Shown piece after piece: positions 3,567 to 62,939 of a DNA stretch of 64,000 bases. The translations under genes and the position numbers were made by a program. The notes beneath the pieces were generated by a model, which was given only the letters and a program-made list of their open reading frames with translations, made no database searches and was not told the DNA's origin. Source of the DNA: Candidatus Micrarchaeota archaeon (GTDB lineage Archaea; Micrarchaeota; Micrarchaeia; Norongarragalinales; Norongarragalinaceae); contig JACPGT010000002.1 of assembly GCA_016188965.1 (NCBI GenBank), positions 245,852-309,851 of the forward strand, given 5' to 3'. The first letter of the stretch is position 1, and the number at the start of each line of letters is the position of its first letter.

Positions 3567-5684
3567 TCAGACCGTGCTGCACGTCGCGGCGGTTGTGCCG
3601 GCGTCGCCCGGTTTCAATTTTGCGGCGGCTTTGCTTTTCAGCCCGATGGGCATTTCGAGGTTTTCAGGCTGGGTCAATACGACGTATCCGATGTCTTCAT
3701 CGCAGCGCGGGCAGTACTCGTGCTCGCCCGCGAGGTACCCGTGCTTGGGGCAGACGCTGAACGTGGGCGTCAGCGTGAAGTACGGCAGGTGGAAGTTGTA
3801 CGCGATCTTCTTGACCATCTCGCGCGCCGTCCGCCAGTCCGAGATGCGCTCTCCGACGAATCCGTGCAGCACGGTGCCGCCGGTGTACTGCGTCTGCAGT
3901 TCGTCCTGGTGTTCCAGCGCTTCGAAGATGTCATCGGTGTGTCCGACGGGCAGGTGCGACGAGTTGGTGTAGTACGGCGCGGCGTGGCTTTCCTTGAACG
4001 CGCGGGCGTTGGCGACTTTGATGTCGGCAAAGCGCGCCGTGTCCAGGCGGGCCAGGCGGTAGGACGTGCCTTCTCCGGGCGTGGCTTCCAGGTTGTAGAT
4101 GTTGCCCGTCCGCTGCTGGTACGTGGACAGCCGCTCGCGCATGTGTTGCAGCACGCGGACGGCGAACTTCTTGCCATCCGGGTGTCCGATGTCCACGCCG
4201 AGCATGTTCTCGACAGATTCGTTCAGTCCGATGAGGCCGATGGTGGCGAAGTGGTTCTTCCAGAATTTGCCGAACGCCTGGCGGATGTCGCGCAGGTAGT
4301 ACTTCGAGTACGGGTAGAGGCCTTTTTCGGTGAATGATTCCAGCACTTCGCGTTTGAGTTCCAGGCTCTGCTGGGCCAGATCCATCAAGGCGTCGAGGCG
4401 TTCGAAGTACTCGCGCGTGTTCTTGGCCAAGAAGCCGATGCGGGGCAGGTTCAGCGTCACGACGCCGATGGAGCCGGTCAAGGGGTTGGCGCCGAAGAGG
4501 CCGCCGCCGCGCTTGCGCAGTTCGCGGTTGTCGAGCCTCAACCGGCAACACATGCTGCGGGCGTCTTCGGGCGACATGTCGGAGTTGACGAAATTCGAGA
4601 AGTACGGAACGCCGTATTTGGCCGTCATCTCGAAAATCTTCTGCAGGACCGGCGCGTCCCAGTCGAAACCCTTGGTGATGTTGTACGTCGGGATGGGGAA
4701 CGTGAATACGCGGCCGTTGGCGTCGCCTTCCATCATGACGTCGGCGAAGGCCTCGTTGAACATCTTCATCTCCGGCTCGAAATCGCCGTAGACTTCCTCG
4801 CGGAACTCGCCGCCGACGATGACCGGCTCGCCGGCCATCATCTTGGGCACCGTCAAATCCAGCGTGACGTTCGTGAACGGCGCCTGGAAGCCCACGCGGG
4901 TAGGGACGTTGATGTTGAACACGAATTCCTGCAACGCCTGCTTGACCTGGGTGTAGTCCAGGCCGTCGTAGCGGATGAACGGTGCCAAGTAGGTGTCGAA
5001 GCTGGAGAATGCCTGGGCGCCGGCGGCCTCGCCCTGCAAGGTGTAGAAGAAGTTGACGACTTGCCCCAAAGCGGTGCGGAAGTGTTTGGCCGGCTTGCTG
5101 GCGATCTTGCCGTGGACGTGGCCGAAGCCGTTCAGCAGCAGGTCCTTGAGGTCCCAACCGACGCAGTACGCGCCTAAGATGCCCAGGTCATGGATGTGAA
5201 AGTCGCCCGAGGCATGCGCTTCGGCGATGTTCGGCGGGTAGATCTTGTTCACCCAGTAGTTGGAGATGACGGCGGAGCTGATGTGGAAGTTGAGGCCTTG
5301 CAGGCTGTAGCTCATGTTGGCGTTTTCCTTGACGCGCCAGTCCGAGCGTTCCAGGTAGTTCTCGACCATGTCGGTCGAATTGAGCATGGAAAAGACGTTG
5401 CGGATGTCCTCGTGCTGCTTGCGGTAGAGGATGAATGCTTTGGCAGTCTTGGCGTGTCCTTCTTCGATGAGCACCTTCTCGACGGCATCCTGGACCTGTT
5501 CAACCGTGGGCGTGGCGCCGATTTGGGACAATTGGTCCACCACGACGCCGGCTAAGCGCTCCGCCGCGGCGCGGTCATGTCCCCCGACGGCGCGGGCGGC
5601 CTTGAAGATGGCATCCGCGATGCGGCTTTTGTCGAACGGCATGATGCGACCGTCGCGTTTCTTCACGAATTCGATTTTCCCCAT
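3567..5684 (-). CDS. nrdD: Anaerobic (class III) ribonucleoside-triphosphate reductase, catalytic body lacking the glycyl-radical motif
   Basis: Recognisable NrdD throughout (FVKKRDGRIMPFDKSRI ATP-cone-like N-terminus; ...HLPYFTLTPTFSVCPKHGYLAGEHEYCPRC zinc site). It ends in a non-homologous tail (DEDIGYVVLTQPENLEMPIGLKSKAAAKLKPGDAGTTAATCSTV*). Start chosen at ATG 5684 (GAGGGG 6 nt upstream); the ORF track extends to 5738. Confidence 0.85.
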   Translation of the reverse strand: MGKIEFVKKRDGRIMPFDKSRIADAIFKAARAVGGHDRAAAERLAGVVVDQLSQIGATPTVEQVQDAVEKVLIEEGHAKTAKAFILYRKQHEDIRNVFSMLNSTDMVENYLERSDWRVKENANMSYSLQGLNFHISSAVISNYWVNKIYPPNIAEAHASGDFHIHDLGILGAYCVGWDLKDLLLNGFGHVHGKIASKPAKHFRTALGQVVNFFYTLQGEAAGAQAFSSFDTYLAPFIRYDGLDYTQVKQALQEFVFNINVPTRVGFQAPFTNVTLDLTVPKMMAGEPVIVGGEFREEVYGDFEPEMKMFNEAFADVMMEGDANGRVFTFPIPTYNITKGFDWDAPVLQKIFEMTAKYGVPYFSNFVNSDMSPEDARSMCCRLRLDNRELRKRGGGLFGANPLTGSIGVVTLNLPRIGFLAKNTREYFERLDALMDLAQQSLELKREVLESFTEKGLYPYSKYYLRDIRQAFGKFWKNHFATIGLIGLNESVENMLGVDIGHPDGKKFAVRVLQHMRERLSTYQQRTGNIYNLEATPGEGTSYRLARLDTARFADIKVANARAFKESHAAPYYTNSSHLPVGHTDDIFEALEHQDELQTQYTGGTVLHGFVGERISDWRTAREMVKKIAYNFHLPYFTLTPTFSVCPKHGYLAGEHEYCPRCDEDIGYVVLTQPENLEMPIGLKSKAAAKLKPGDAGTTAATCSTV

Positions 5685-8049: not shown

Positions 8050-8202
8050 GGGGAGTATCAGGCAAAAAAAGCCTTAATAACCATCCGTTTACAGAAGGTA
8101 GAAAGTCGCGCAATCTAGTTTCGAATTCGTTTCCTGAAACGCACCTGTTTTCAGAAGACGGGGTTTGCCGCCGATTGTCGGAATCGGCGGTTTTGCTCAA
8201 AA

Positions 8203-8222
8203 GGAGGGGAAGCTCAGCCTGA
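8203..8222 (+). other. tRNA 5'-fragment-like sequence (candidate degenerate attL)
   Basis: GGAGGGGaAGCtcAGCCTGa matches the tRNA-Leu 5' end GGAGGGGtAGCaaAGCCTGg (18631-18650) at 16/20 positions. It lies about 110 nt upstream of the integrase gene. Confidence 0.4.
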
Positions 8223-8331
8223 AAATTCCTGTTGTTGTTCCTAGACGGCGGCCGGCGGTGCAAAACCTCGGCCATTATTCCACTATTCTTGCTTTGCCAG
8301 CCGCGCGTCGATAAGCGAGGTTGGTTAGAAA

Positions 8332-8988
8332 GTGAGTCTTAGAAGCGAGCGACGCAAACGGGAAACAGGGTACACCAAGTCCATGGACGAAGGCGAAGTC
8401 CGCCGCCTTTTGTCCTGGATGCGCCGGAAAAATCGGAAGATCTACCTCGTCTGCCTTTTTCTGGCCCTCGGCCTGCGCGTGGGCGAGGCCGTGCGCCTGA
8501 ACCGCTTCAATATGGATCCGGAGTGCAGGACGGTCACGTACCAGGTCGAAAAGACCGGCAAGATCCACAGCCGCTTGATTCCATCCTGGATGGCCGCCGA
8601 GCTGCGCGACTGGATTCAAGACCTTCCATTGGGCCAGCCGTTTCTGTTTTTCGCCGAGCCGAAAAACCGCCGCTTTGGCCGTGAGCACCTGCACGTGCGC
8701 AGCATCAACGACTATTTTTCTCAAGCCCGCCGCGAGCTCGGCCTAAATCACGTCTACAAAACGCTGCATTTGGCCGACGGCCGCACCCAACGCCTGTACC
8801 GGATCACGCCGCACACGCTGCGTCATTTCGCGGTGGAATCCATTTACGAGGCGCTGGAGTATGATCTGAAAGCTACGGCTGACACCATCGGGCACTTGGA
8901 TCCAGCCACGACGCAGACGCACTACTTGAAGAACAGGCAGTTTCGAGAAAAGGAGGCGTTGCACGTGTTCGACCGACTCAAAATCTGA
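8332..8988 (+). CDS. Tyrosine recombinase/integrase, catalytic domain only (218 aa)
   Basis: GLRVGEAVRL (Arg I), ITPHTLRHFAV (HxxR) and GHLDPATTQTHYL (catalytic Tyr). GTG start with GAGGTTGG upstream; an in-frame stop immediately precedes it, so there is no N-terminal core-binding domain. Confidence 0.8.
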   Translation: MSLRSERRKRETGYTKSMDEGEVRRLLSWMRRKNRKIYLVCLFLALGLRVGEAVRLNRFNMDPECRTVTYQVEKTGKIHSRLIPSWMAAELRDWIQDLPLGQPFLFFAEPKNRRFGREHLHVRSINDYFSQARRELGLNHVYKTLHLADGRTQRLYRITPHTLRHFAVESIYEALEYDLKATADTIGHLDPATTQTHYLKNRQFREKEALHVFDRLKI

Positions 8989-9124
8989 AGGGATTCTATG
9001 CAGAGTAAAGAGTTTTTCAGACAAGTGCGGCGTTGGCTGGCCGTTCTGGATAAAGGACAGTACGAAGTGGTCGACCTGCATTTTTTCAGCAAAGGCAAGC
9101 AGGTATTTCTGCGTGGTCCGGAGG

Positions 9125-9526
9125 CTAAAGCGCGTCGATCTCGTACTCGCGTCCTGGTGCGCCGAGTTTGAGGCGGCGGTCTTCTTTCAGGCCGATGGGT
9201 ATGAGGTTGGCCGGAAAGTCCCAGCGGTTGGCCATTACGGGCGTGACGACGTGTGCGTCTCGGCCGATTGCCGGAATCTCTGCAGCGGATAAGCCCAAGG
9301 AGCGGCGCAGCAAATCCAGGCCGACCTGGGCAGTTAAACCCAAGTCTTCCCGGACCAACGGCTGAATTAAGTCTCGCGCATTGTCGTAGTGCGATCGGTC
9401 AAAAATCAAGTGGTACAATTTGAGTTCGCGTAACTGCACCCATTTGAGCTCCGGTTTTTCACCAAAAGCGGCTTCAAATTGCCGGCGTTCAAACGGCGGC
9501 ACGTCCAACGCAAAAACAAGGTGCAT
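9125..9526 (-). CDS. Hypothetical protein (provirus, last gene of the minus-strand block)
   Basis: 133-aa ORF contiguous with the upstream viral genes; no recognisable motif. Confidence 0.5.
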   Translation of the reverse strand: MHLVFALDVPPFERRQFEAAFGEKPELKWVQLRELKLYHLIFDRSHYDNARDLIQPLVREDLGLTAQVGLDLLRRSLGLSAAEIPAIGRDAHVVTPVMANRWDFPANLIPIGLKEDRRLKLGAPGREYEIDAL

Positions 9527-9529
9527 GGG

Positions 9530-9733
9530 TCAATAGACTCCTTCGTTTTGCAGGAAGCGGTCAGCTGCAAGGGCTACGGCTGCAACGAACGCGGAACCGC
9601 TATCGCCCAGGCCGAGGAATTGGCCGAGGGCGCCGCCGGCAACGAAGGCCAAGAAGCCTTTCGTGAACCGTTTTAGGACGGCATAGCGCGCAGGAGTCAG
9701 CACGTCGTTGACCGCATCCAATAGAACGCCCAT
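9530..9733 (-). CDS. Small Gly/Ala-rich membrane protein (provirus)
   Basis: ATG 9733 preceded by GGTGG; hydrophobic G/A-rich sequence. The ORF track starts at TTG 9739. Confidence 0.5.
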   Translation of the reverse strand: MGVLLDAVNDVLTPARYAVLKRFTKGFLAFVAGGALGQFLGLGDSGSAFVAAVALAADRFLQNEGVY

Positions 9734-9735
9734 GT

Positions 9736-9876
9736 TCAACCACCGACGATTTTTTGCACCAGGGGTCCCAGGACTACGAGGGCCACGGCGCCCATGATGT
9801 AGAGCGCCAGGTCAAGTTTGGTCTCGATTTTGCCGACGCGAACTCGCAAGTCCTGGAATTGTTCGCGCATACTCAT
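9736..9876 (-). CDS. 46-aa protein with a C-terminal TM helix (provirus)
   Basis: Manual translation: MSMREQFQDLRVRVGKIETKLDLALYIMGAVALVVLGPLVQKIVGG*. Its start overlaps the upstream stop. Confidence 0.45.
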   Translation of the reverse strand: MSMREQFQDLRVRVGKIETKLDLALYIMGAVALVVLGPLVQKIVGG

Positions 9877-10025
9877 GCTCCGCCACCTTTGGCCTTTTCC
9901 TGCTGGAGCTTGGCCTTCTCGGCGTCAAGCCTGGCCTGAATTTCGACGACTTTCTGCGTCTCGCCCAATTCCTGCCAGACGATTTTTTGCAAGGCCAAGC
10001 GGGCTACTTTGGGAAGGTCGACCAT
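9873..10025 (-). CDS. 50-aa coiled-coil-like protein (provirus)
   Basis: Manual translation: MVDLPKVARLALQKIVWQELGETQKVVEIQARLDAEKAKLQQEKAKGGGA*. ATGA overlap with the upstream 447-aa gene. Confidence 0.45.
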   Translation of the reverse strand: MVDLPKVARLALQKIVWQELGETQKVVEIQARLDAEKAKLQQEKAKGGGA

Positions 10026-11368
10026 CAGACAAGCACCACCGAGAATTTGGAGAGGGACGCGCCGGCTGCAAGTTGGAAGCGGATGTTGTTGTTGGACGCG
10101 CCGCCCGTCTGGGAAATTGAAAGGTATGTGTCCAACGCGTTGCTGGTGACGTATGAGCCGTTGTTGAACCGGTAGTCGAACGTGGGTGCAGTGCCGGTGT
10201 AGCTGGCTTTAACGAGCATCCCGGTGAACGAAAGGCCGTTCAAGTCGCCCAGGCTGACGATTACGTTGGTTGCGCCGCCTGCGTCCATGTTCGCATACAC
10301 GTCGTAGGTAGCCGCGTCGGACCAGGAGCCGCCGTATGATTCGTAACCGCCTCCGCTGCCGACGTTGTCCAACGCGACGCGGTAGTTGTTGTCGGAGGCC
10401 TCGGTTTCCGCGGTTTTCCACACTGCATGATATGTTCCGGCGGCCAACGTCACCGGTGAAGCAAACTCGAACACGTTTAATGCGCCGTTTACGATGCTTG
10501 CCTGGGCTACGGTTTTAGTCGCGCCGGCGTCGGCAAGGGTGCCGGATGGCAGTCCGCCGGAATCCGTTTCAATTCGCAAAGTTAGGTCTGAAGGCGTACC
10601 GGTCTGGGAAATGACGTATACTCTGAACCGGGTAATTGTGGTTTGGGCGGCCAGGGTGAATTGTTGGGCGATACGACCGTAGGTGCCGGATGAGTTTCCG
10701 ACGCCAGTGTAGGCGTCGTTGGCCACGCCGAAGTTGGTGGTGGCGACGGAGTCGTAGGCTTTGTTGGTGGAGTTGTATTGCGCGGTGGCGCTGGCCAGGG
10801 TGTTTGCGTAGCCGTTGGAGTCGGTGAAGGTGTCGGCTTTTTCGAATTGAGCGGAAAATGGGTTAATCGAGGCGTTGGCCAGCAGCGTCATGATGTCAAT
10901 GTCCTGCGCTGCGTTGATGTCGAGGAGGCGGTTGAGTTCGTTGGTGACTTCGGCGGATAGCAGGGCGCGGCTTAGAAAACCGTTTTGGAATTTTCCGCGT
11001 CCTGTCGCGTCGGCAGTGAACAATGCGGAGGGAAAAAGGTTGAGCGCCAGGAAGTCGTTGGCAAACTTTCCGCGCCCGGTGGCATCGGCGGTGAACATGC
11101 CTGCGGGAATGAGATTTAAGGCCAGGAAGTCGTTGGCAAACTTTCCGCGCCCGGTGGCATCGGCGGTGAACATGCCTGCGGGAATGAGATTTAAGGCCAG
11201 GAAGTCGTTGGCAAACTTTCCGCGTCCTGTCGCGTCGGCGGTGAAAATGCCGTTGGCGATTTTTGCCAACGTGATTCCAAGGTCTTTGACTTGCGCCACG
11301 CCGCCGGCAGTCTGCTCAAGCGTTGAGTTGTCCGGGTTGAATGTGTTGCCGGAGCTGGAAAAGCCCAT
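10025..11368 (-). CDS. Putative virion spike/receptor-binding protein with four 25-aa tandem repeats
   Basis: 447 aa. FTADATGRGKFANDFLALNLIPAGM occurs 4 times near the N-terminus, and the C-terminal half is beta-rich (T/S/G/A/V). Located in the structural module. Confidence 0.5.
   Translation of the reverse strand: MGFSSSGNTFNPDNSTLEQTAGGVAQVKDLGITLAKIANGIFTADATGRGKFANDFLALNLIPAGMFTADATGRGKFANDFLALNLIPAGMFTADATGRGKFANDFLALNLFPSALFTADATGRGKFQNGFLSRALLSAEVTNELNRLLDINAAQDIDIMTLLANASINPFSAQFEKADTFTDSNGYANTLASATAQYNSTNKAYDSVATTNFGVANDAYTGVGNSSGTYGRIAQQFTLAAQTTITRFRVYVISQTGTPSDLTLRIETDSGGLPSGTLADAGATKTVAQASIVNGALNVFEFASPVTLAAGTYHAVWKTAETEASDNNYRVALDNVGSGGGYESYGGSWSDAATYDVYANMDAGGATNVIVSLGDLNGLSFTGMLVKASYTGTAPTFDYRFNNGSYVTSNALDTYLSISQTGGASNNNIRFQLAAGASLSKFSVVLV
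10946..11245. repeat. Tandem 75-bp repeats (4 units, the two central ones nearly identical at nucleotide level) inside the spike-like gene
   Basis: gccaggaagtcgttggcaaactttccgcgcccggtggcatcggcggtgaacatgcctgcgggaatgagatttaag occurs twice consecutively, flanked by diverged copies. Confidence 0.85.
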
Positions 11369-11369
11369 G

Positions 11370-12572
11370 CTATATCAGCCCCACGGCCTTGAGGCCGGCG
11401 CGCAGCACGCCGGTGTCAAAGCCGATGCCGGCAGTGGCCAAATGGTTGATCAAATCGGCGCCGCCCATACCTGACGGAAGCGTCTTGAGGTAGTCCTCTT
11501 GGCGGTTCAGCTGGTTCAGCAGAGACGTGTCAACGACGCCGGATTCGCCGGACTTCAGTCTGCGCACCTGGTCGAACGCGATTGCAACCGGCGTGCGCGG
11601 GAAGGCGCCCAGCGCAAAGCTGCCGTCCAATAGGCGCAGCTGGGTGGTTGGAGCCGTCTGGAATGCAGTTACGGTCTGGCCCGTGCCCAAAAGAGTCGTG
11701 GTCGCCTGGTTTTCTGTAGGTCCTGCTGCAACGACGGCCACCGGCGCGGCAATCTTCGGGATGATTGGCATGATCGAATACATGCGCTCCTGCGTGGTTC
11801 CAATTGGTTCGGCGGTGCCGACTTCCCCGAAAAATCGAGTCACGGCATCCAGGCCGGCGTTGAGGGTGTCTTTGGCCGTCCAGCCAAAGGCCCAGATTAC
11901 CGGCACGCCGGCGCCCAGCTCGACATGGCGGACGAAGATGTCACCTTCGGTCTTGATGCCATCCCTGGCAATCGGTGCGGCTTTAAGCAGCATTTCTCCC
12001 AGGCCGGATTCAAAGCCTGGCGTGAGCCAGCCGCCCAGGACTAAGTAGTTGACCTTGCGGCCAGGCACGCCAAGGCCGCGTGAAATCGTCACCATGCGTG
12101 CAAATTCTGATGCCGACATGGATTCCGCGCTGATTCCGACACTCTTGAGCGCAGATTTGACGCGGGCTGCAGCCGTTTGGCTTCCGGAGTCCGTTCCGGT
12201 GACGATGGATACGGTTCCGGAGGTTTCCGCCGGCGGCTGCTTGTTGGACTCATCCCGCAAGTAGCCCGTTGCAGCATCCCAAGCACCGGCCAAAAGACCC
12301 GTTCCAGGAAGGGCGGCAAAAATGCTGCCTGCAAGCGGTGCGGGAAGCGTCGCGGCAGCCTCAGCGGCGTTGGCCAGAGGCGAAGGCGTCGGCGGCAACA
12401 CTGCCGGAGACCGAGTCGGCGAAGTGGCTGGAGGCATAGCCGCCAGGTTGGGGTTTTCCACGAGCTCGTCCTTGGACGGCTTGCTCGGCTGCGGCGCCTC
12501 CTTCTTTGGCGTCAGCAGCAATGCCAATAGGACCAAGCCGGCGCCGATGAGCACGATGTCGTTCTTTCCCAT
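11370..12572 (-). CDS. Membrane-anchored protein with a Pro-rich linker (provirus structural module)
   Basis: N-terminal TM (IVLIGAGLVLLALLL), then a P/S/T/A-rich stretch, then a globular region; no known motif. Confidence 0.5.
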   Translation of the reverse strand: MGKNDIVLIGAGLVLLALLLTPKKEAPQPSKPSKDELVENPNLAAMPPATSPTRSPAVLPPTPSPLANAAEAAATLPAPLAGSIFAALPGTGLLAGAWDAATGYLRDESNKQPPAETSGTVSIVTGTDSGSQTAAARVKSALKSVGISAESMSASEFARMVTISRGLGVPGRKVNYLVLGGWLTPGFESGLGEMLLKAAPIARDGIKTEGDIFVRHVELGAGVPVIWAFGWTAKDTLNAGLDAVTRFFGEVGTAEPIGTTQERMYSIMPIIPKIAAPVAVVAAGPTENQATTTLLGTGQTVTAFQTAPTTQLRLLDGSFALGAFPRTPVAIAFDQVRRLKSGESGVVDTSLLNQLNRQEDYLKTLPSGMGGADLINHLATAGIGFDTGVLRAGLKAVGLI

Positions 12573-12579
12573 GTTTGGT

Positions 12580-12801
12580 TCACTTGCGCGTCAGGAGCAC
12601 GAATGCAATCAGGCCCGCGCCGATGATCAGCAGGGGGCTGATGTTGAGTTTGGCGTCGCCTACTTGGACTGTGGGCTGCGGCTGCGTGATGGGCTTGACC
12701 ACTTCCTCGCCCACGACGTACGCCGCGCCGGCGATGCTGGCCCAAGTCAGGACCGTAGGGGCAGCGGCAAGAAGTCCTGCGCCTAAAATCGGAAGAACCA
12801 T
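12580..12801 (-). CDS. Small two-TM membrane protein (provirus)
   Basis: 73 aa, hydrophobic G/A/L/V-rich. Confidence 0.5.
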   Translation of the reverse strand: MVLPILGAGLLAAAPTVLTWASIAGAAYVVGEEVVKPITQPQPTVQVGDAKLNISPLLIIGAGLIAFVLLTRK

Positions 12802-12802
12802 G

Positions 12803-13174
12803 TCAGATTACCGCGTCAGCCGGCACCGTGTCGCCGGAAATCATCAACTGGACCGTGCCGCTGGAGGACGCCACCAAGGCAAGCAGCTCGATGGTTTCGT
12901 TCTGATCCAGCACGATCGGCTTTGCCGTTCGGTCGACCGTGAAGGACTGCGACAGCCTCCGGCTGGTGTTAGCCAAGAGGCTGCGGCCCTTGATCTTCAA
13001 GTCGATCTGGCCGGCAACGCTGGACCCCAAAAAATTGGAGTCCGCGTTGAGGCTGATCTCGTAGATCAAGGCTTTCTTGCCCTGGGGCACCGTGAACGTG
13101 TACTGCGAGGTCAAGGCCGTCTGGCTGACGGTAATGATCCCGGAGAGGTCCAGGAAGGGATTGGAGGCCGCCAT
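12803..13174 (-). CDS. Beta-rich 123-aa protein, candidate minor capsid/penton (single jelly-roll size)
   Basis: Position directly downstream of the candidate major capsid gene; S/T/V/I/L-rich composition with no TM. Fold not verifiable here. Confidence 0.35.
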   Translation of the reverse strand: MAASNPFLDLSGIITVSQTALTSQYTFTVPQGKKALIYEISLNADSNFLGSSVAGQIDLKIKGRSLLANTSRRLSQSFTVDRTAKPIVLDQNETIELLALVASSSGTVQLMISGDTVPADAVI

Positions 13175-13187
13175 GATTGCGACCTCC

Positions 13188-14027
13188 TCACTCCATCAGG
13201 ACCAGGAACCAGTTCACCGTGTCGGAGCCGGCGCCGTTGACGTCCAGTTGCGTGACCGGGTTGGGCACGAACGGCGTCAGCGGCAGCTTGAACCGGCCCG
13301 TCTGGTGGCCGCTCACGAAAGTGTCCTGATCCAGGGCGATCATGTCCGCCGGCGTGATGGCCGGAAGCTCGACGGTGCCGTCGCGGGTGAACGTCACGTC
13401 CGTGACGTTGCTTTCCGTGCCGACGGTGAAGCCGACCATGGCCACCTTGCGGTTCTGCGGCAGGTTGGGCCCGAAGCGGTTCGTGCCGGACACGATGCTC
13501 TGCGACAGGCGCGTGTAGCGACGCGTGTACCCCGGATCGTTCGTGGAGTAGATGCCCACGACGGTCAGCGAGACCGTGCCGCCGGTTGCGCCGGAGGCCG
13601 CCATGTCGCTGTACGGCGCAATGGTGACCTGCAGCTTGGCGTCTTGGTCTTTCTGCGAAATTTCCAGGGGGATGAAGTAGCGGCGCGTCTGGTTCGAACC
13701 GGAGGTCGTGGCCACGGACGTGTTGATGCCGTTGGCGCCGAAGACCGTTTCGATGAACGTCAAGTCGCGGCCGCGAATGTTCTGCGCGATCCAGTTGCCT
13801 TGGCGATCTTTCACGTCGATGGACTGAATGGCGTAGTCCAACGTCGCGGCAGTCGTCAGCGTGCCGGTGGTCGACTGCGTCAGGTGCAGGACCAGGCCGA
13901 CCAAGGCGCCGACGTTGGGAATCGTGACTTCGGACTGGGGGGCCGCCGAGGCGCTCATGGAAATGCTGGAGAGTGCCTGGATGGTCTGGCGCTTGAAGCG
14001 CGTCTGGATTTGGACAGCTTGTGCCAT
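13188..14027 (-). CDS. Candidate major capsid protein (279 aa, beta-rich)
   Basis: Largest non-membrane, T/V/S/G-rich ORF in the module containing the packaging ATPase. The size is compatible with small double-jelly-roll MCPs or the large MCP of two-MCP single-jelly-roll viruses. Inference only. Confidence 0.4.
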   Translation of the reverse strand: MAQAVQIQTRFKRQTIQALSSISMSASAAPQSEVTIPNVGALVGLVLHLTQSTTGTLTTAATLDYAIQSIDVKDRQGNWIAQNIRGRDLTFIETVFGANGINTSVATTSGSNQTRRYFIPLEISQKDQDAKLQVTIAPYSDMAASGATGGTVSLTVVGIYSTNDPGYTRRYTRLSQSIVSGTNRFGPNLPQNRKVAMVGFTVGTESNVTDVTFTRDGTVELPAITPADMIALDQDTFVSGHQTGRFKLPLTPFVPNPVTQLDVNGAGSDTVNWFLVLME

Positions 14028-14039
14028 GGCGATTCACCT

Positions 14040-14324
14040 TTAGGCCGAAGCCATGGCCCGCGGAATGAATCCGCCGACCAGGTTGGCGACCATGGGTCCG
14101 AAGGCCACCAAGGCGCCTGCAACGACGGCTCCCTGGCCTGCGACCTTGGCAATGCCATGATCACCCATGAACATGAGCACGGCGGCGCCCACGAGGGCCA
14201 GCGCGATGCCGGCGAGGAAGTAGTCGCCCTTGGTGAAGCCCGCCACTAGCGGGTTGACGATGTTCTGCATGAAGGCGCCGGCAAGGCCGACAGCCACGGA
14301 AGCCATCACGACGGTCAACGACAT
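14040..14324 (-). CDS. Small three-TM Gly/Ala-rich membrane protein (provirus)
   Basis: 94 aa hydrophobic protein; AAGGTGG upstream of the ATG. Confidence 0.55.
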   Translation of the reverse strand: MSLTVVMASVAVGLAGAFMQNIVNPLVAGFTKGDYFLAGIALALVGAAVLMFMGDHGIAKVAGQGAVVAGALVAFGPMVANLVGGFIPRAMASA

Positions 14325-14428
14325 ATTCCAAAACCACCTTGTGAAAATTTTTTCTGCAAGTCGGCAGAACGGCGCCGCTTAAGAGGCGGCAAGAAAAAAG
14401 GCTCTATTGAGCAGTCCGGGAGCGGCTC

Positions 14429-14593
14429 TTAGAAGCGGATTTTGCGGTATTCGTCCACTGCTTTTTTGGTGATGAAGCGCAGGAATTCAGCCAGGGTCAT
14501 GTAGCCGTTGGCGCCGGCGACTTTGCGCAGCTGCCAGACTTTCGGCACGCGCAGCGTGACTTTTTCGTGGTCGACCTCGTTAAATTTTCTCAT
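14429..14593 (-). CDS. 54-aa ribbon-helix-helix-like protein (provirus)
   Basis: MRKFNEVDHEKVTLRVPKVWQLRKVAGANGYMTLAEFLRFITKKAVDEYRKIRF* shows a beta-strand/helix/helix pattern. It is the C-terminal part of ORF 14429..14902 and overlaps the ATPase stop by 14 nt. Confidence 0.45.
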   Translation of the reverse strand: MRKFNEVDHEKVTLRVPKVWQLRKVAGANGYMTLAEFLRFITKKAVDEYRKIRF

Positions 14594-15158
14594 ACAGCTG
14601 CACGCTCCCGTCCTCGAAAAGCAAGAATCGATGGCCATCCAGATGCGGAGCCTGGTCTGCGGCTTTTCCGATGAATTCCCGCAAATAATCCACGTCGGTC
14701 GGCAGGATGGTTTTGAAAACGACGATGTGATGCGCCTGCGCCAAAGGGTTTTTGTCCAGGGCGGCAAGACGCCGGGTAACGCAGAACATGCCGACGTTGC
14801 GGTGCCGGCCCAAGTCGATGAACTGCTTGGTCTGAAAGCCGATTTTTCGAGACGGAATGACTTGGTCGGCTTCATCCACGAATAAAACGCGGTTGCCGGC
14901 ATCGAAGACCTGCTTGACGACGTGCTCGAATTCGTCCTGCGTCCTGGACGAAGGCTGGTAGACGATTTTTTCCTTGACCTGCAGGCTGGGGCGCAGCTGA
15001 TCCGGCGTCCGGACGACGTAGCCGAGGCTGCCGTGCTCGTGCATGTAGTCCCAGAGCACGAAGCGGGGCGTGGCTTTGACGACGGCGCGGAGGAAATGGC
15101 TTTTGCCGGATCCGCGCATGCCGCAGACGACGGTGTTATCGCTTCCCTGAAAACGCAT
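14580..15158 (-). CDS. Genome-packaging-type ATPase (FtsK/HerA superfamily, A32-like size)
   Basis: Walker A GMRGSGKS and Walker B VLFVDEAD; about 192 aa from ATG 15158 (MRFQGSD...). The ORF track extends to 15260. Confidence 0.7.
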   Translation of the reverse strand: MRFQGSDNTVVCGMRGSGKSHFLRAVVKATPRFVLWDYMHEHGSLGYVVRTPDQLRPSLQVKEKIVYQPSSRTQDEFEHVVKQVFDAGNRVLFVDEADQVIPSRKIGFQTKQFIDLGRHRNVGMFCVTRRLAALDKNPLAQAHHIVVFKTILPTDVDYLREFIGKAADQAPHLDGHRFLLFEDGSVQLYEKI

Positions 15159-15429
15159 CCTGCACCTGCCTTTTGGCGTTTTTAAGTTCCTGGTTGACTT
15201 TGGCCGGATCCAGCGCAGACATGTCGAGCGCGGCCACGTTGTTTTGGTGCATCCAGGCATGCAGCGGCTCCAGGACCTTCTGCTCGAAGTGCTCGCGCTT
15301 TTCCATAATCCCGGCCGCTACTCCGGATTCCGAGATCCGGATCAGGCTGCGCATGTGCGGCGGCAGAAAATCCGCGAGCGTCACGATCAAGGCGGCCAGG
15401 TCCTGGCATGCGTCATCCGAAAGCGCCAT
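15136..15429 (-). CDS. Hypothetical protein (provirus)
   Basis: 97-aa ORF, acidic and helical, embedded in the gene chain. Confidence 0.45.
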   Translation of the reverse strand: MALSDDACQDLAALIVTLADFLPPHMRSLIRISESGVAAGIMEKREHFEQKVLEPLHAWMHQNNVAALDMSALDPAKVNQELKNAKRQVQDAFSGKR

Positions 15430-15435
15430 GCCGGA

Positions 15436-15606
15436 TCACCCCAGGGAAAATTCCAAGTCGTCCTTCTGGAGTTTTTCCAGCTGCTCCAAGGCGCTTTTGA
15501 GCTGGGCTTCCAGCTCGGCGTTGCGGCGCTTTAAGTCCTGGTTTTCTCGGACGATTTCTTCAAACCGCTGCAGGTTGCGCTGCTGGGGCGTTGCTTCTTC
15601 CGGCAT
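15436..15606 (-). CDS. 56-aa coiled-coil protein (provirus)
   Basis: Manual translation: MPEEATPQQRNLQRFEEIVRENQDLKRRNAELEAQLKSALEQLEKLQKDDLEFSLG*. AGGTGG lies 6 nt upstream. Confidence 0.45.
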   Translation of the reverse strand: MPEEATPQQRNLQRFEEIVRENQDLKRRNAELEAQLKSALEQLEKLQKDDLEFSLG

Positions 15607-16219
15607 CTTTACCACCTTTGAGTTTTTGCTGCATGAGCGCCATTTTTCCGCCGACGGTTGCAGTGAGGGCGACGACCAGGACGGCCACCTCGTAATGCTC
15701 CTTGAGCAGTTCGGGCAAGTACTTTTCAGCCACGGGCTTTGACGCCTCGCCGAGCGCGTCTTTTTCGCTTTGCGTCAAGTTCCAGGTTGGCTCGCCGGTG
15801 ACGAATGCGGCAGCGCCGAAAATGGACTGCCAGACTGCCCCCAGCGTCTCGGCGCGCATCTGCAGTTGCGGCTGCGGCGTCGGACCTTGAAAGACTCCAG
15901 GAATCACGGTGCCGCCCGTCGGCGCTTGAGGTCCGGCGGTCGATTGGAGGTCTTTTTTCTCCTGGTTTACCTCTATGAGTGCACTGCCAGCTGGGGCAGC
16001 GGAAACGGTCGTTTCTGCCAGTGGTTTTTCAGCAATAGGTGCACCTGGACCGTCAGTTGCTGCTTGACCCATTGCAATTTGGATTTGTTCTTGAGTGGCC
16101 GGTCCGATGTAGCGCCCGCATTTCGGACATCGGTTTTTGGACGGATCACCCACCCAGGCATGCTGGCATTTCTCGAACGGGCAGCGGCGCCCAATCTTAA
16201 ATTTTTTCGGTCTTCCCAT
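15560..16219 (-). CDS. Zn-ribbon protein with a C-terminal TM segment (provirus)
   Basis: CPFEKC...CPKCG near the N-terminus and a hydrophobic stretch (YEVAVLVVALTATVGG) near the C-terminus. ATG 16219 has GGTGG upstream. Confidence 0.5.
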   Translation of the reverse strand: MGRPKKFKIGRRCPFEKCQHAWVGDPSKNRCPKCGRYIGPATQEQIQIAMGQAATDGPGAPIAEKPLAETTVSAAPAGSALIEVNQEKKDLQSTAGPQAPTGGTVIPGVFQGPTPQPQLQMRAETLGAVWQSIFGAAAFVTGEPTWNLTQSEKDALGEASKPVAEKYLPELLKEHYEVAVLVVALTATVGGKMALMQQKLKGGKDAGRSNAPAAQPAAV

Positions 16220-16379
16220 CAGTACCACCTACCTTGATTTTTGGAATTTGCACTGCCAAGCCCGCTGCGTGTAGGGCGGCGGCTTCGTCCTGGACGCCGT
16301 GCACGTGCGGCGTGAAATTGGAGCGCTGCAAGCCGCATTTGGCGCACGGCCACGACTTCTTTTCTTCATCCGGCACCAT
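16197..16379 (-). CDS. 60-aa protein with a CAKC motif (provirus)
   Basis: ORF-track ORF; its start follows 4 nt after the stop of the upstream Zn-ribbon ORF. Confidence 0.4.
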   Translation of the reverse strand: MVPDEEKKSWPCAKCGLQRSNFTPHVHGVQDEAAALHAAGLAVQIPKIKVGGTDGKTEKI

Positions 16380-17125
16380 GAATTCAACACCCCGCTTGGT
16401 AGCAGTCCTTGCAAAACCCGACGGAGTACGTCACGTCCGACGTCGTACCCGTCGTGAACGGCGGGCGGCTCTGATGTCGGATCATGCAGGCGTCGCGCCG
16501 GCAGTAAAAGCACTTCATCCGATTGCACCCCAAGCCGCCAGCGGCACGTCCTGGCCGCAGGCGTGGATCTTTCCGCGCACCAGTTCAAGGCAATCCGGAC
16601 AACGCCAAGGCCGCATTTTTTCACCGAGTTGTATTGCAATACACTTGCAATCATGAATTTTTTGAAAGCGAATTTTGCTTTCTTTCGAGATTTTTTTTCG
16701 ATTTTTTCTTTCGATTTCCAAACATTTTTCACACTTGCATTGAGTAGTGCATCTGTTTCCGGGTCTGCGATTGCAAGCGTCTTGCAATACACTGAAGTCA
16801 AAGAATAGGATTCGATGTATGCGTCAATTTCTTCCTTGGAAACTGGGATTTCTTCTTCTAAAATCGACAAAATTTTTTTGATACCTGCAAGGCATCGCAG
16901 GTCATCTTCCGTTGTTCCGCTTTTCTGCTCGAGCTGTTCGATGAGTTTTCGCGCGCCTCCAGTTATCTCGGATTGGGTGGCCTGGCCAAGATAGGCACGC
17001 ACTCCATACTCCATTGCATCCGTCAAGCTGATTCCGGCCGTCCTGGCACGATTTACCAGGCTCGTGGGGATCCTGGCGTTGACGGGAGTCTTAGGAATGT
17101 GCTTGCTGACGGATGTTTTCCTCAT
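16229..17125 (-). CDS. ORF with an RHH-like N-terminus; 3' extent doubtful
   Basis: The N-terminal part (IPTSLVNRARTAGISLTDAMEYGVRAYL) resembles RHH/CopG. After about residue 170 the sequence is Arg/Pro/Cys-rich and atypical of coding sequence, and it overlaps three better-looking Zn-ribbon ORFs. A frameshift or an early true stop is possible. Confidence 0.3.
   Translation of the reverse strand: MRKTSVSKHIPKTPVNARIPTSLVNRARTAGISLTDAMEYGVRAYLGQATQSEITGGARKLIEQLEQKSGTTEDDLRCLAGIKKILSILEEEIPVSKEEIDAYIESYSLTSVYCKTLAIADPETDALLNASVKNVWKSKEKIEKKSRKKAKFAFKKFMIASVLQYNSVKKCGLGVVRIALNWCAERSTPAARTCRWRLGVQSDEVLLLPARRLHDPTSEPPAVHDGYDVGRDVLRRVLQGLLPSGVLNSWCRMKKRSRGRAPNAACSAPISRRTCTASRTKPPPYTQRAWQCKFQKSR
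16384..16518 (-). CDS. 44-aa Zn-ribbon protein (provirus)
   Basis: Manual translation: MKCFYCRRDACMIRHQSRPPFTTGTTSDVTYSVGFCKDCYQAGC* (CxxC...CxxC). ATGA overlap with the upstream ORF. Confidence 0.45.
   Translation of the reverse strand: MKCFYCRRDACMIRHQSRPPFTTGTTSDVTYSVGFCKDCYQAGC
16515..16787 (-). CDS. 90-aa Cys-rich (multi-CxxC) protein (provirus)
   Basis: CKCEKC...CPDC motifs. Linked by an ATGA overlap to the next ORF. Conflicts with the long ORF 16229..17125 in another frame. Confidence 0.35.
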   Translation of the reverse strand: MQDACNRRPGNRCTTQCKCEKCLEIERKNRKKISKESKIRFQKIHDCKCIAIQLGEKMRPWRCPDCLELVRGKIHACGQDVPLAAWGAIG

Positions 17126-17223
17126 CCAGCGTTCACCAGGTCGTGGTGCTTGTCGGCGCGGTCCCGCTTGACGTACACGAACCTTCCGTTGGTCTTTTCG
17201 CGGACTTCGATGTGGGTCGTCAT
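17122..17223 (-). CDS. 33-aa basic micro-protein (provirus)
   Basis: MTTHIEVREKTNGRFVYVKRDRADKHHDLVNAG*; ATGA overlaps at both ends. Confidence 0.35.
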   Translation of the reverse strand: MTTHIEVREKTNGRFVYVKRDRADKHHDLVNAG

Positions 17224-17876
17224 TCTATCGCCTCGTAGGTGGTGTATTTCTTGGAGGCCTTTCCGGCTTCCAGGAGCGTCTTGCATGCGCGGTCCAGCTC
17301 CGCGTCTGCCGCGTTCAGTTCAAAGCGCAGCGTCTTGTACGGCGTGGGTCCTTTGTCCTGTAAGTAGGCCAGGACGCGGGACTCCAAACTGCCGGGGGTG
17401 AACGTGTGCTTGATTTTCGGAATTTTTTCGGGGTTTACCTCGGCGGATTGCGACGCCGGCGCCGTGGTGCGCATGTTCTTCCAGGCCTTTCTTCGTTCGA
17501 CGGCTTGTTCAAAGGCGTCCACGATTTTTGCCGTGTTGGGTTTATGGCGTAATCCTTGCCGGCGGCCACCTTTTTGGGTGGGGCCCAGGCGAGCCGCCGG
17601 AGTCGGCTCCACGTCTTCTTCGCGGGGGGCGATTGATTCAGCGGAGCGTGCTTTCAGGACGGCCAGGTCACGGGCTTGGGCTTCTGCCTCGGCTTCTTTC
17701 ACGTAGGCATTGATCTGATCAATTTTGTTTTCCCAGACCAACGCGGCGCGGAAGCCTTGCACGAAGCACATGACTGCGGCGTTTCCAGCGCCATGTGCGG
17801 CTTCTTCCTGGTGCGCCAGAACTTGCAGGGCGATGGCGCGGCGCAGACCTTTGTTCAGCGGCTCGTTTTCGTTCAT
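17220..17876 (-). CDS. Protein with a C-terminal winged-helix-like domain (provirus)
   Basis: From ATG 17876 (MNENEPL...). The C-terminus SRVLAYLQDKGPTPYKTLRFELNAADAELDRACKTLLEAGKASKK is wH-like. The upstream part of ORF 17220..18086 looks out of frame. Confidence 0.5.
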   Translation of the reverse strand: MNENEPLNKGLRRAIALQVLAHQEEAAHGAGNAAVMCFVQGFRAALVWENKIDQINAYVKEAEAEAQARDLAVLKARSAESIAPREEDVEPTPAARLGPTQKGGRRQGLRHKPNTAKIVDAFEQAVERRKAWKNMRTTAPASQSAEVNPEKIPKIKHTFTPGSLESRVLAYLQDKGPTPYKTLRFELNAADAELDRACKTLLEAGKASKKYTTYEAIE

Positions 17877-18076
17877 GCGCGCCGGCCTCCGGAAAAATAG
17901 AAGTCGATGTACGGCACGTCTTCCAGGGCGTCCTCGACGCTGAATTCGCGGCCGCAGTTGGGACACGTCGCGTTCTGGATCTCGGACAGCGCGCCATTTC
18001 TTGCGCACAACGACCCACCTACGGCGATTAGAAGGAGGGCGCGCCGTTTTCCGTTCAGAACGAGGGGTTCCGTCAT
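17873..18076 (-). CDS. 67-aa protein with a CPNCG Zn-binding motif (provirus)
   Basis: ORF-track ORF; ATGA overlaps with both neighbours. Confidence 0.45.
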   Translation of the reverse strand: MTEPLVLNGKRRALLLIAVGGSLCARNGALSEIQNATCPNCGREFSVEDALEDVPYIDFYFSGGRRA

Positions 18077-18231
18077 TGCGAATCAACCTGGGGCACCGGG
18101 ATCCTCCGGTATATCAAAGTCTGGCGTACCAGATCCGAAAGCGTCCTGCAGCCGACTTTCTTGGCCAGCTTCCGGAGCATCCGCTTTTCCTCCGGGTAGA
18201 ACGAAAGGGAAAGTTGGGCCGCTTTCTTCAT
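18073..18231 (-). CDS. 52-aa ribbon-helix-helix (CopG/Arc-like) protein, first gene of the provirus minus-strand operon
   Basis: Manual translation: MKKAAQLSLSFYPEEKRMLRKLAKKVGCRTLSDLVRQTLIYRRIPVPQVDSQ*. Classic RHH pattern. The TATA box ctatataag lies 21-29 nt upstream. Confidence 0.55.
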   Translation of the reverse strand: MKKAAQLSLSFYPEEKRMLRKLAKKVGCRTLSDLVRQTLIYRRIPVPQVDSQ

Positions 18232-18251
18232 AATCTTCCCAAGGAACATTA

Positions 18252-18298
18252 CTATATAAGTCTTACGTTTTCCAATTCTTACGTAAACCCTATATAGG
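18252..18298. promoter_or_regulatory. Divergent provirus promoter region: two TATA boxes flanking two TCTTACGT direct repeats
   Basis: aCTATATAAG (18252-18260), TCTTACGT (18261-18268 and 18277-18284), CTATATAGG (18290-18298). Each TATA box lies 20-40 nt from the start of one divergent gene. Confidence 0.55.
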
Positions 18299-18328
18299 TC
18301 TGTGTCCCTTTACAGTTAGGTGGTTCGC

Positions 18329-18640
18329 ATGGGTAGTGGAAATGGCCGCAATATTTTTGTTCACCAGGACATCCTGGACCGAATCAACCGCGTCTTTGAT
18401 TTGGATCGCGACTCGATTATTGGCCGCGTCTCGCGCCTGACGCCAAACGAAAAAGCCAGGATTTTGATGGAGCAGCGCCTGGAGCAGCTGGAGGCAGAGG
18501 TCCAAGTCAAGAATCTTTTAGGATCGCCGCGCTCATTCGTACCCCCGGTAAATACGCTTGCGCAGGAACTAAGTCGCGCACCGGCCAAGATTAAAAAAGG
18601 GAAGAAGTCAGCAGATTCAGGCTTAACTATGGAGGGGTAG
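18329..18640 (+). CDS. Hypothetical 103-aa protein, divergent from the provirus operon and ending inside the tRNA-Leu 5' end
   Basis: ATG 18329 with AGGTGG 6 nt upstream. The stop TAG is at 18638-18640, within GGAGGGGTAG of the tRNA. Possible lysogeny regulator (by position only). Confidence 0.45.
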   Translation: MGSGNGRNIFVHQDILDRINRVFDLDRDSIIGRVSRLTPNEKARILMEQRLEQLEAEVQVKNLLGSPRSFVPPVNTLAQELSRAPAKIKKGKKSADSGLTMEG

Positions 18641-18767
18641 CAAAGCCTGGTCAAACGCGACAGACTCAAGATCCCAGGCCCTATCCGTTAAAGAAGAAGC
18701 CTTTCGGGCTTTGGTTGGGGAATCTGTTCCCCTAGCGGGTTCGAGGGTTCAAATCCCTCCCCCTCCA
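18631..18767 (+). tRNA. tRNA-Leu(CAA) with a 51-nt intron (18671..18721) at position 37/38
   Basis: Acceptor GGAGGGG/CCCCTCC, T-arm GAGGG-TTCAAAT-CCCTC, anticodon stem ACAGA/TCTGT, loop CTCAAG|A, long variable arm. Mature length is 86 nt. The D-stem is weak (A12-C23 mismatch). Confidence 0.8.
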
Positions 18768-18775
18768 TGGTCGCC

Positions 18776-18802
18776 CCAGGGGGAAACGCTGTTTCCCCCT
18801 GG
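18776..18802. terminator. Perfect 12-bp hairpin between the convergent tRNA-Leu and a membrane protein gene
   Basis: ccagggggaaac-gct-gtttccccctgg. Confidence 0.5.
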
Positions 18803-18925
18803 CACGGCCTGCGCCTCGCCTTCTTCCCTTGCCATTTTCAGGACTAGTGAGGGATTCGGTTTTTCTTGGTGGAGCTTCTTTTCGGAAAAAGAAGGTCCGT
18901 TGCACCTCCCTCCCCCTCCACTTTT

Positions 18926-62478: not shown

Positions 62479-62654
62479 GTGAACCCCTCTTTTTTGCCTC
62501 TAAAAAATCGTCAGATTTGGTTTGGCTACATCAGCGGGCAGCTTTTTAATAAAGGTTTCTTCCTCGGCCCGCCCTCTTTTTCTAAGTGGGTTTTCGTCCG
62601 GTGGCGTGAACCCGATTGGGTTTTAAGCCTTATTAGGCAAAAGGTAACTGCAAC

Positions 62655-62939
62655 GGGCTAGTCGGAGGGTTAAGGGTCCTCTGGCAGCGCCAACCCCTTT
62701 GAGGCGGACGAAAGCCGAACGGGCGGGTGATGCGTTTGCGTCCTGGCCCGGAGACAAGGCGTTGACGTCTTGCCTTGCGTTACGTATTGCGCCGCGAACC
62801 GAGCCAGGCCGGAAGGAGCAACTCTAAGCAGAACAACGCGTGCTCGCAAGATCCAAGGCCGAGCCGGACTTCGGATCACCAGGCCGTGAACCATCCTTCC
62901 ACCGCTGGCACGCCCGTTGCACCTTTCTCACTCCGGGGC
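62655..62939 (+). ncRNA. Signal recognition particle RNA (archaeal 7S-type); ends approximate
   Basis: Conserved helix-8 core CCAGGCCGGAAGGAGCAAC (GGAA tetraloop) on the plus strand. GC-rich, about 285 nt; TATA-like ttatta lies about 20 nt upstream and a T6 run immediately follows (62940-62945). Confidence 0.7.

Follow-up and report, generated by a model that had tools for sequence, protein, structure and literature searches.

We analysed a window of 64,000 nt from an archaeon of the Candidatus Micrarchaeota (GenBank assembly GCA_016188965.1, contig JACPGT010000002.1) and found that its positions 8203-18649 are a discrete 10.4-kb insertion in the Micrarchaeota chromosome. This insertion is very probably the provirus of a small temperate double-stranded DNA virus of the double jelly-roll type (PRD1/STIV/PM2, Varidnaviria). 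An earlier reading of the letters (the original prediction) had proposed an integrated tailless icosahedral virus of the PRD1/STIV kind at this place. A major capsid protein (MCP) with a double jelly-roll, a packaging ATPase resembling STIV B204 and an empty integration site in a related genome now bear this out. The original prediction had compared the element to proviruses of Euryarchaeota; the kind of virus holds, but the host lineage is Micrarchaeota (DPANN). Little is known of the viruses of DPANN archaea, which are abundant organisms with tiny genomes that rely on host cells.

A discrete insertion at the start of a tRNA-Leu gene

The epimerase gene in the left flank was used as a query against one genome per species, which identified a Micrarchaeota metagenome-assembled genome (MAG; L009) with a 78% identical gene. 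Comparison by tblastx showed that positions 2.4-8.07 kb and 19.1-29 kb of the window are collinear with this genome and detected no counterpart of 8.2-18.6 kb in it; at the empty site, an intron-bearing tRNA-Leu(CAA) gene directly adjoins the epimerase gene. At the left junction, positions 8060-8221 align to the intergenic spacer of L009 and the first 19 nt of the tRNA, and at the right junction homology restarts at exactly 18630, with none upstream. Genomes of the same lineage lacking the segment had been proposed as a check, and L009 is such a genome: its break falls exactly at the predicted borders, 8203 and 18650, which coincide with attL and attR as defined here. A block fixed at this locus across Micrarchaeota is argued against by the same syntenic genome.

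The att sites were derived from the empty-site alignment. attL (GGAGGGGAAGCTCAGCCTG) and attR (GGAGGGGTAGCAAAGCCTG) are the only pair with at most three mismatches in the 64 kb, and none was expected from 100 shuffles; a seeded repeat search (seed 10, minimum length 14) detected no att repeat. The borders of the insertion are defined by the junction alignment together with this unique repeat. attL is host-derived up to about GGAGGGG and element-derived beyond it. On the simplest reading of these sequences, crossover would have taken place in or near the shared GGAGGGG, with an attP that mimics the tRNA in part and a tRNA that stays fully functional. Integration at the 5' end of a tRNA gene, as here, is uncommon.

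The tRNA gene itself, described in the original prediction as tRNA-Leu, is real according to Rfam and carries the anticodon CAA (Table 1); ARAGORN in bacterial mode missed it because of the intron. The flanks syntenic with a Micrarchaeota MAG point to a DPANN archaeal host, and the intron-containing tRNA agrees with this. The G+C content of the element (58.3%) matches that of the host (59.4%), and all 25 open reading frames (ORFs) of the element are open.

Beside attL lies the integrase gene. Its product (int218), called an integrase in the original prediction, is a tyrosine recombinase, matching Pfam PF00589 Phage_integrase with 2.2e-14 over profile positions 2-168 of 172 and PHROG 216 with 8e-23. 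At the other end of the element lies ORF106, which has a homolog of 68% identity in L011, a second genome that carries a related element at the same tRNA-Leu on a contig that breaks off within this element. When the circle is reconstructed, ORF106 extends across attP to 140 aa; its stop lies 18 nt ahead of the integrase start and in another frame, so that integration alters the C-terminus of the gene beside int. A split integrase of the SSV type made up of ORF106 and int218 was rejected because of the different frames and the intervening stop. An SSV-type (type I) integrase was likewise rejected, since int218 is unsplit and attP, spanned by ORF106/140, precedes its start by about 110 nt.

The last 14 nt of the tRNA gene (TCCCTCCCCCTCCA) are duplicated 139 nt downstream (18754-18920). 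The segment between the two copies opens with a 12-bp hairpin, and its RNA fold reaches -57.9 kcal/mol (z -2.6). In L011 the same duplication is found at 3986-4093 around a homologous 80-nt segment that is inverted relative to the tRNA, and the empty site of L009 has a single copy. Another integrative element, inserting at the 3' end of the tRNA gene, probably left the duplication behind as a scar.

Capsid protein, packaging ATPase and their relatives

The 279-aa protein, identical to NCBI protein HYV43_01840, was modelled with AlphaFold2 from an alignment of 28 close homologs (pLDDT 90.5, pTM 0.82). In the model, each of the two halves is built from about eight strands and a single helix (H86-95 and H226-236). 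Foldseek searches against the PDB retrieved PRD1 P3 (2e-13, TM-score 0.70), PR772, the STIV MCP (7e-12, TM-score 0.71/0.63), PM2 P2 (4e-11) and PBCV-1 Vp54. Against BFVD the best match was AMDV5_4 (6e-16, TM-score 0.78/0.76, root-mean-square deviation 3.0 Å), followed by the MCPs of the tectiviruses Wip1 and GC1 and the STIV coat protein. A fold test of this protein had been called for, and judging by the modelled structure it is a minimal double jelly-roll MCP. At the sequence level no match was found in Pfam, PHROG, GenBank phages or PLSDB plasmids (tblastn for the latter two), and a profile of the family (A1) retrieved nothing from all PDB sequences at E up to 10. A divergent family member gave a marginal tblastn match (E=0.06) whose position coincides exactly with the MCP genes of Microbacterium tectiviruses.

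The gene of the packaging ATPase is located 550 nt upstream of the MCP gene, and both Walker motifs named in the original prediction are present in its product (Table 1). The best PDB match is the STIV B204 NTPase (6.5e-5), with residues 41-219 (numbering of the 226-aa ORF) aligned to 5-195 of the 212-residue chain; PHROG 2666 (head and packaging) is matched with 8.7e-24, and tblastn against GenBank phages gave no match. The sole relative in the plasmid database is the ATPase of a 16.9-kb extrachromosomal element (ECE) of Pyrobaculum oguniense (30% identity, 4e-17). There a gene annotated as 'putative Major Capsid Protein' follows two genes downstream of the ATPase gene, and the same element carries an integrase. 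The STIV B204 match and this relative beside an MCP gene decide between an A32-like and a plasmid-type enzyme in favour of the viral type, unlike the ATPases of conjugation and partition.

Directly after the MCP gene always follows g123, even where a relative has nothing in common with the element beyond MCP, g123 and ATPase. Its AlphaFold2 model shows eight strands and is of moderate quality (pLDDT 75) because only seven sequences were available. Foldseek returned jelly-roll proteins only (Ena3A with 1e-5, phage cement proteins, and the capsids of STMV, circovirus and nodavirus; TM-score 0.5-0.6). The jelly-roll expected for this protein stands at moderate confidence, and g123 is a candidate for the penton protein, a role that we consider likely. 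In size it is near PRD1 P31 with its 126 aa.

An exhaustive profile search showed that the MCP family comprises 136 cluster representatives (100 at E<1e-10), mostly of 270-350 aa and metagenomic, and the family is conserved across these clusters. All named members are annotated as 'hypothetical', and some are encoded on contigs of 9-12 kb, two of which were binned as Bathyarchaeia and Thermoplasmata. Cluster look-ups gave no tie of the family to AMDV5 or to named proteins, and IMG/VR scans with two of its members gave no close relative.

Several relatives could be inspected in their gene context. One contig (L008) is a closed circle of 11,185 bp with an exact 30-nt terminal overlap (k=31 assembly); it carries homologs of MCP, g123 and ATPase and no recognisable replication gene. 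Another (L001) encodes a protein-primed polymerase B (pPolB); no terminal inverted repeats were found on this contig, which may be incomplete. In two Micrarchaeota proviruses of about 11.5 kb (L004 and L005), one end encodes a serine recombinase and the opposite end a tyrosine integrase of 372 aa, which overlaps the 3' end of a tRNA gene other than tRNA-Leu, with att repeats of 12-15 nt. Short integrases resembling int218 are present in L007 and L012. As judged from these gene maps, the family keeps its virion module constant and exchanges its maintenance module. The latter would comprise a tyrosine integrase at the tRNA 5' end, a serine recombinase with a tyrosine integrase at 3' ends, a polymerase of the protein-primed type, or simply a circle. 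A fixed virion module combined with a swapped maintenance module is typical of prokaryotic double jelly-roll viruses (PMC5894146).

One Micrarchaeota MAG (GCA_040960315.1) apparently contains two related double jelly-roll proviruses, one at tRNA-Thr (L004, 6471-17940) and one at tRNA-Leu (L011); the sequence that they share may have broken the assembly of L011. The L005 provirus carries a HicA toxin gene, and a MazE/PIN toxin-antitoxin pair is encoded just outside its integrase-tRNA end (14695-15217 and 17621-18322).

Alternative explanations and comparison with known viruses

A number of observations weigh against a functional provirus. No known penton protein was among the top 50 Foldseek matches of the g123 model (pLDDT 75), and Pfam recognised no replication protein in the window copy. 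The att repeat is imperfect, its three mismatches being compatible with an old, immobilised insertion. No excised circle, attP junction or particle was seen, and in the other assemblies searched all three further contigs with the exact MCP represent the integrated form or fragments. In addition, comparison with the otherwise 100% identical Logan contig L017 (SRR12113385) revealed a 95-nt deletion between 16721 and 16722, which removes the stop codon of a 147-aa RHH/CcdA-like early gene (RHH, ribbon-helix-helix). The 298-aa ORF at 16229-17125 is the resulting read-through, its counterpart in L017 having 147 aa; the deletion reflects either variation within the population or a difference between assemblies. 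Finally, elements of the TKV4/pTN3 type set a precedent in that they encode an MCP, and virions have not been shown for them (PMC12934983).

With the exception of the penton result, these points would fit a provirus that is defective or has been domesticated, or else an integrative plasmid of viral origin like pTN3/TKV4. Such an element would have lost, or never had, the ability to form virions and would persist in the integrated state, perhaps vesicle-borne or immobile. We regard this as unlikely. The ORFs of the virion module are intact and collinear with those of relatives of 40-90% identity, the same capsid family is found on the closed circle L008 and on the pPolB contig L001, and the 136 MCP clusters show no truncation pattern. 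The mismatches in the att repeat are accounted for equally well by an attP that mimics the tRNA only partly.

An integrated conjugative or mobilisable plasmid, or an island of the core genome, whose ATPase serves conjugation or partition, is very improbable. A single sub-threshold match to NikA, a relaxase accessory protein of the RHH type, speaks for it, and a generic P-loop protein could fill many roles; against this, Pfam and PHROGs gave no match to a relaxase, a type IV secretion system or ParA, the ATPase resembles viral packaging enzymes, a capsid protein is encoded, and the segment is missing from the syntenic L009. Least probable is a sphaerolipovirus-like virus with two single jelly-roll MCPs of 279 and 123 aa, an option left open by the original prediction and suggested by the two adjacent beta-rich proteins and the jelly-roll-like g123, since the 279-aa chain alone holds both jelly-rolls and matches double jelly-roll MCPs over its full length (TM-score about 0.7).

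The provirus reading can be compared with several known systems. The STIV group, the Pyrobaculum oguniense TE7 ECE and TKV4/MVV have in common with the window element an archaeal host, a small genome and tyrosine-integrase lysogeny at tRNA genes. The Pyrobaculum ECE has the same order of ATPase, small ORF and double jelly-roll MCP, and STIV has a homologous ATPase (B204) and an MCP of matching fold. The MCPs of Turriviridae and the STIV group are larger (308-345 aa versus 279 aa) and without sequence similarity to the window protein, as hhalign gave a probability of 0.8% for the Pyrobaculum ECE MCP and the PDB search mentioned above found none. The window element further differs from this group in that MCM or another replication gene was not recognised and in its host phylum, DPANN. 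With Tectiviridae it shares the best PDB fold match of its MCP, PRD1 P3, and small membrane proteins in the late module; the pPolB of this family was found in the relative L001, not in the window element. It differs from Tectiviridae by its integrase, a presumably circular form when excised, an archaeal host and an MCP identity of about 12%; terminal inverted repeats were found neither here nor in L001.

Skuldviruses of Asgard archaea and PM2 of the Corticoviridae resemble the element in having a double jelly-roll MCP of minimal length (about 270-290 aa), an FtsK/HerA packaging ATPase and a small circular genome. Skuldviruses are archaeal viruses known from metagenomes alone (bioRxiv 10.1101/2021.07.29.453957) and are predicted to be lytic, whereas the window element encodes an integrase. 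Among the scanned proteins Pfam revealed no Topo mini-A, topoisomerase VI-A-like protein or rolling-circle endonuclease, and the MCP had no match in the GenBank phage collection, which may not include skuldviruses. The Odin group (PMC5894146), defined by having no packaging ATPase, was rejected, as the element encodes an ATPase that is conserved throughout the family.

The closest structure is that of AMDV5_4 (UniProt B3GAN6; 289 versus 279 aa) from AMDV5, with 16% identity and no link found at the sequence level. The acid mine drainage community from which AMDV5 originates also contains ARMAN (Micrarchaeota/Parvarchaeota); CRISPR data linked AMDV5 to I-plasma (Thermoplasmatales), not to ARMAN (PMC2745766).

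A 2026 survey reported no provirus in 1,356 Micrarchaeota genomes (PMC13573593). In the searchable literature we found no publication on both Micrarchaeota and double jelly-roll viruses. A study by Wu, Liu and Ni from 2024 (Nat Microbiol) reportedly describes seven groups of DPANN viruses, and its abstract is said to mention tailless icosahedral morphologies; an overlap of the Micrarchaeota element with these viruses is possible. The element represents a new lineage within a well-known type of virus, the temperate archaeal double jelly-roll viruses, in a barely explored host phylum. We propose more tentatively, and with considerable doubt, that it is the first precisely delimited Micrarchaeota provirus and founds a new family-level lineage of DPANN double jelly-roll viruses, invisible to Pfam, PHROG, IMG/VR and GenBank, which freely swaps its maintenance modules and has AMDV5 as its nearest structural relative. 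If this is true, AMDV5-like viruses may infect ARMAN cells or move between episymbionts and Thermoplasmatales hosts.

The element shows that Micrarchaeota do have proviruses of this kind, which escape detection since none of the present profiles recognises their hallmark proteins. The location inside a 392-kb Micrarchaeota contig provides an anchored host-virus pair, and the capsid profile built on the 136 cluster representatives can be used as a marker for mining groundwater and other metagenomes. The double jelly-roll lineage is thereby extended to another deep archaeal branch, which bears on whether it predates the divergence of the archaeal phyla. The family also offers a compact natural case in which modules for replication and integration are exchanged while the virion module stays fixed.

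Further genes of the element

Between the integrase and the tRNA lies one minus-strand gene block, as the original prediction had described it; we count 23 ORFs in it (9125-18249), five junctions being 4-nt start/stop overlaps, in addition to the plus-strand ORF106. Other details of that description, namely the transmembrane segments of g94, g73 and g400, the Pro-rich part of g400, the tandem repeats of g447 and the absence of tail and portal genes (no portal, tail or HK97 match in Pfam or PHROG), were also recovered. Transmembrane segments were called by hydropathy. The positions of all features are listed in Table 1.

Table 1. Features of the 10.4-kb insertion and the adjoining tRNA gene (window positions)
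Feature	Position	Strand	Description
attL	8203..8221	+	GGAGGGGAAGCTCAGCCTG; repeats the initial 19 nt of tRNA-Leu imperfectly (16/19)
int218	8332..8988	+	Tyrosine recombinase, 218 aa, catalytic domain only; GLR47, H161-x-x-R164, C-terminal Tyr Y198
g133	9125..9526	-	Final gene of the late block; 80% identical to the L004 homolog in the same position
Three small ORFs (69, 46, 50 aa)	9530..10025	-	At least one transmembrane segment; 4-nt overlaps; L004 homologs in the same place
g447	10025..11368	-	Conserved N-terminus, four 25-aa tandem repeats, variable beta-rich C-terminus
g400	11370..12572	-	Transmembrane segment at residues 4-22, Pro-rich linker, C-terminal domain; 44% identical to L005
g73	12580..12801	-	Small membrane protein, two transmembrane segments; conserved in L004, L005
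g123	12803..13174	-	123 aa, single jelly-roll-like beta-sandwich; candidate penton (vertex) protein
MCP	13188..14027	-	279 aa, predicted double jelly-roll of minimal size, close to that of PM2 P2
g94	14040..14324	-	Small membrane protein, three transmembrane segments, directly upstream of MCP; conserved in L004, L005, L008
54-aa protein	14429..14593	-	Putative RHH protein (label of the original prediction); overlaps the ATPase stop by 14 nt; homologs in the same position in L004, L005; gene model agrees with L017
Packaging ATPase	14580..15158	-	192 aa, FtsK/HerA-type (A32/B204-like); Walker A GMRGSGKS, Walker B VLFVDEAD
g97, g59, g222	15136..16228	-	Conserved block upstream of the ATPase; g59 coiled coil, g222 with zinc-ribbon N-terminus and C-terminal transmembrane segment
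Early/regulatory block	16197..18249	-	g58 (NikA-like RHH), g67 (CxxC), g218, g54, 147-aa gene, g90, g49, g60
ORF106	18320..18640	+	Divergent from the early block; stop TAG is tRNA positions 8-10
attR	18631..18649	+	GGAGGGGTAGCAAAGCCTG; first 19 nt of host tRNA-Leu
tRNA-Leu(CAA)	18631..18767	+	Host gene; Rfam tRNA 39.7 bits; intron of about 52 nt at the canonical 37/38 position

The virion of the element would be tailless and icosahedral, probably with an internal membrane. Such a membrane would fit the transmembrane proteins scattered among the late genes, namely g94, g73, g400 and products of the small ORFs. The protein g447 is 91% identical to its L004 homolog over the full length and shares only residues 1-138 with the L005 protein and only 1-65 with that of L007; its four repeats are spaced by 75 nt (10974-11258). 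Spikes commonly show this layout, with a conserved N-terminus, repeats and a C-terminus differing from one relative to the next, which makes g447 a candidate vertex spike or receptor-binding protein. The architecture of g400 suggests that this protein is possibly membrane-associated and structural, and the ORFs of 69, 46 and 50 aa are candidates for virion-membrane or egress proteins. Pfam and PHROG gave no match for g123, g400, g447 and g133, and g447 and g400 had none among the PDB sequences either. The g97-g59-g222 block has collinear homologs in L004 and L005 and, in part, in L008.

The early block encodes putative small RHH, zinc-ribbon and DNA-binding-type proteins. Its Pfam matches are all sub-threshold, the sole RHH match being the NikA-like one of g58 (E=1e-5), and its gene models are consistent with L017 and L011. 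In the 70-nt gap between the divergent g58 and ORF106 (18250-18319) two TATA-like boxes were observed, TATATAA and CTATATAG, and this gap is plausibly a divergent archaeal promoter region beside attR.

From these data the following cycle can be proposed. A circular episome of about 10.4 kb would recombine with the start of the host tRNA-Leu(CAA) gene via the tyrosine integrase. Its attP (…ACTAT-GGAGGGG-AAGCTCAGCCTG…) would pair with the first tRNA bases, and crossover in or near GGAGGGG would leave the tRNA intact. The divergent promoter region beside attR would drive the small DNA-binding early or regulatory genes. The late block would then supply the packaging ATPase, the small membrane proteins and the double jelly-roll capsid protein, which would form trimeric pseudo-hexamers, as well as the jelly-roll vertex protein, the protein anchored in the membrane and a spike that bears repeats and has a variable tip. 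The ATPase would finally pump the DNA into an icosahedral shell that has formed beforehand and is lined by a membrane. Of this scheme, the data show the insertion with its borders, the fold of the capsid protein, the kind of ATPase and, for the family, mobility and the shuffling of modules; the roles of g123 as penton and g447 as spike, the membrane inside the virion, the temperate life cycle and virion production are what we infer.

Outside the element, an RNA of the signal recognition particle (SRP) at 62653-62917 was assigned by Rfam to Bacteria_large_SRP (67.1 bits; gathering score 60) and not to an archaeal SRP model.

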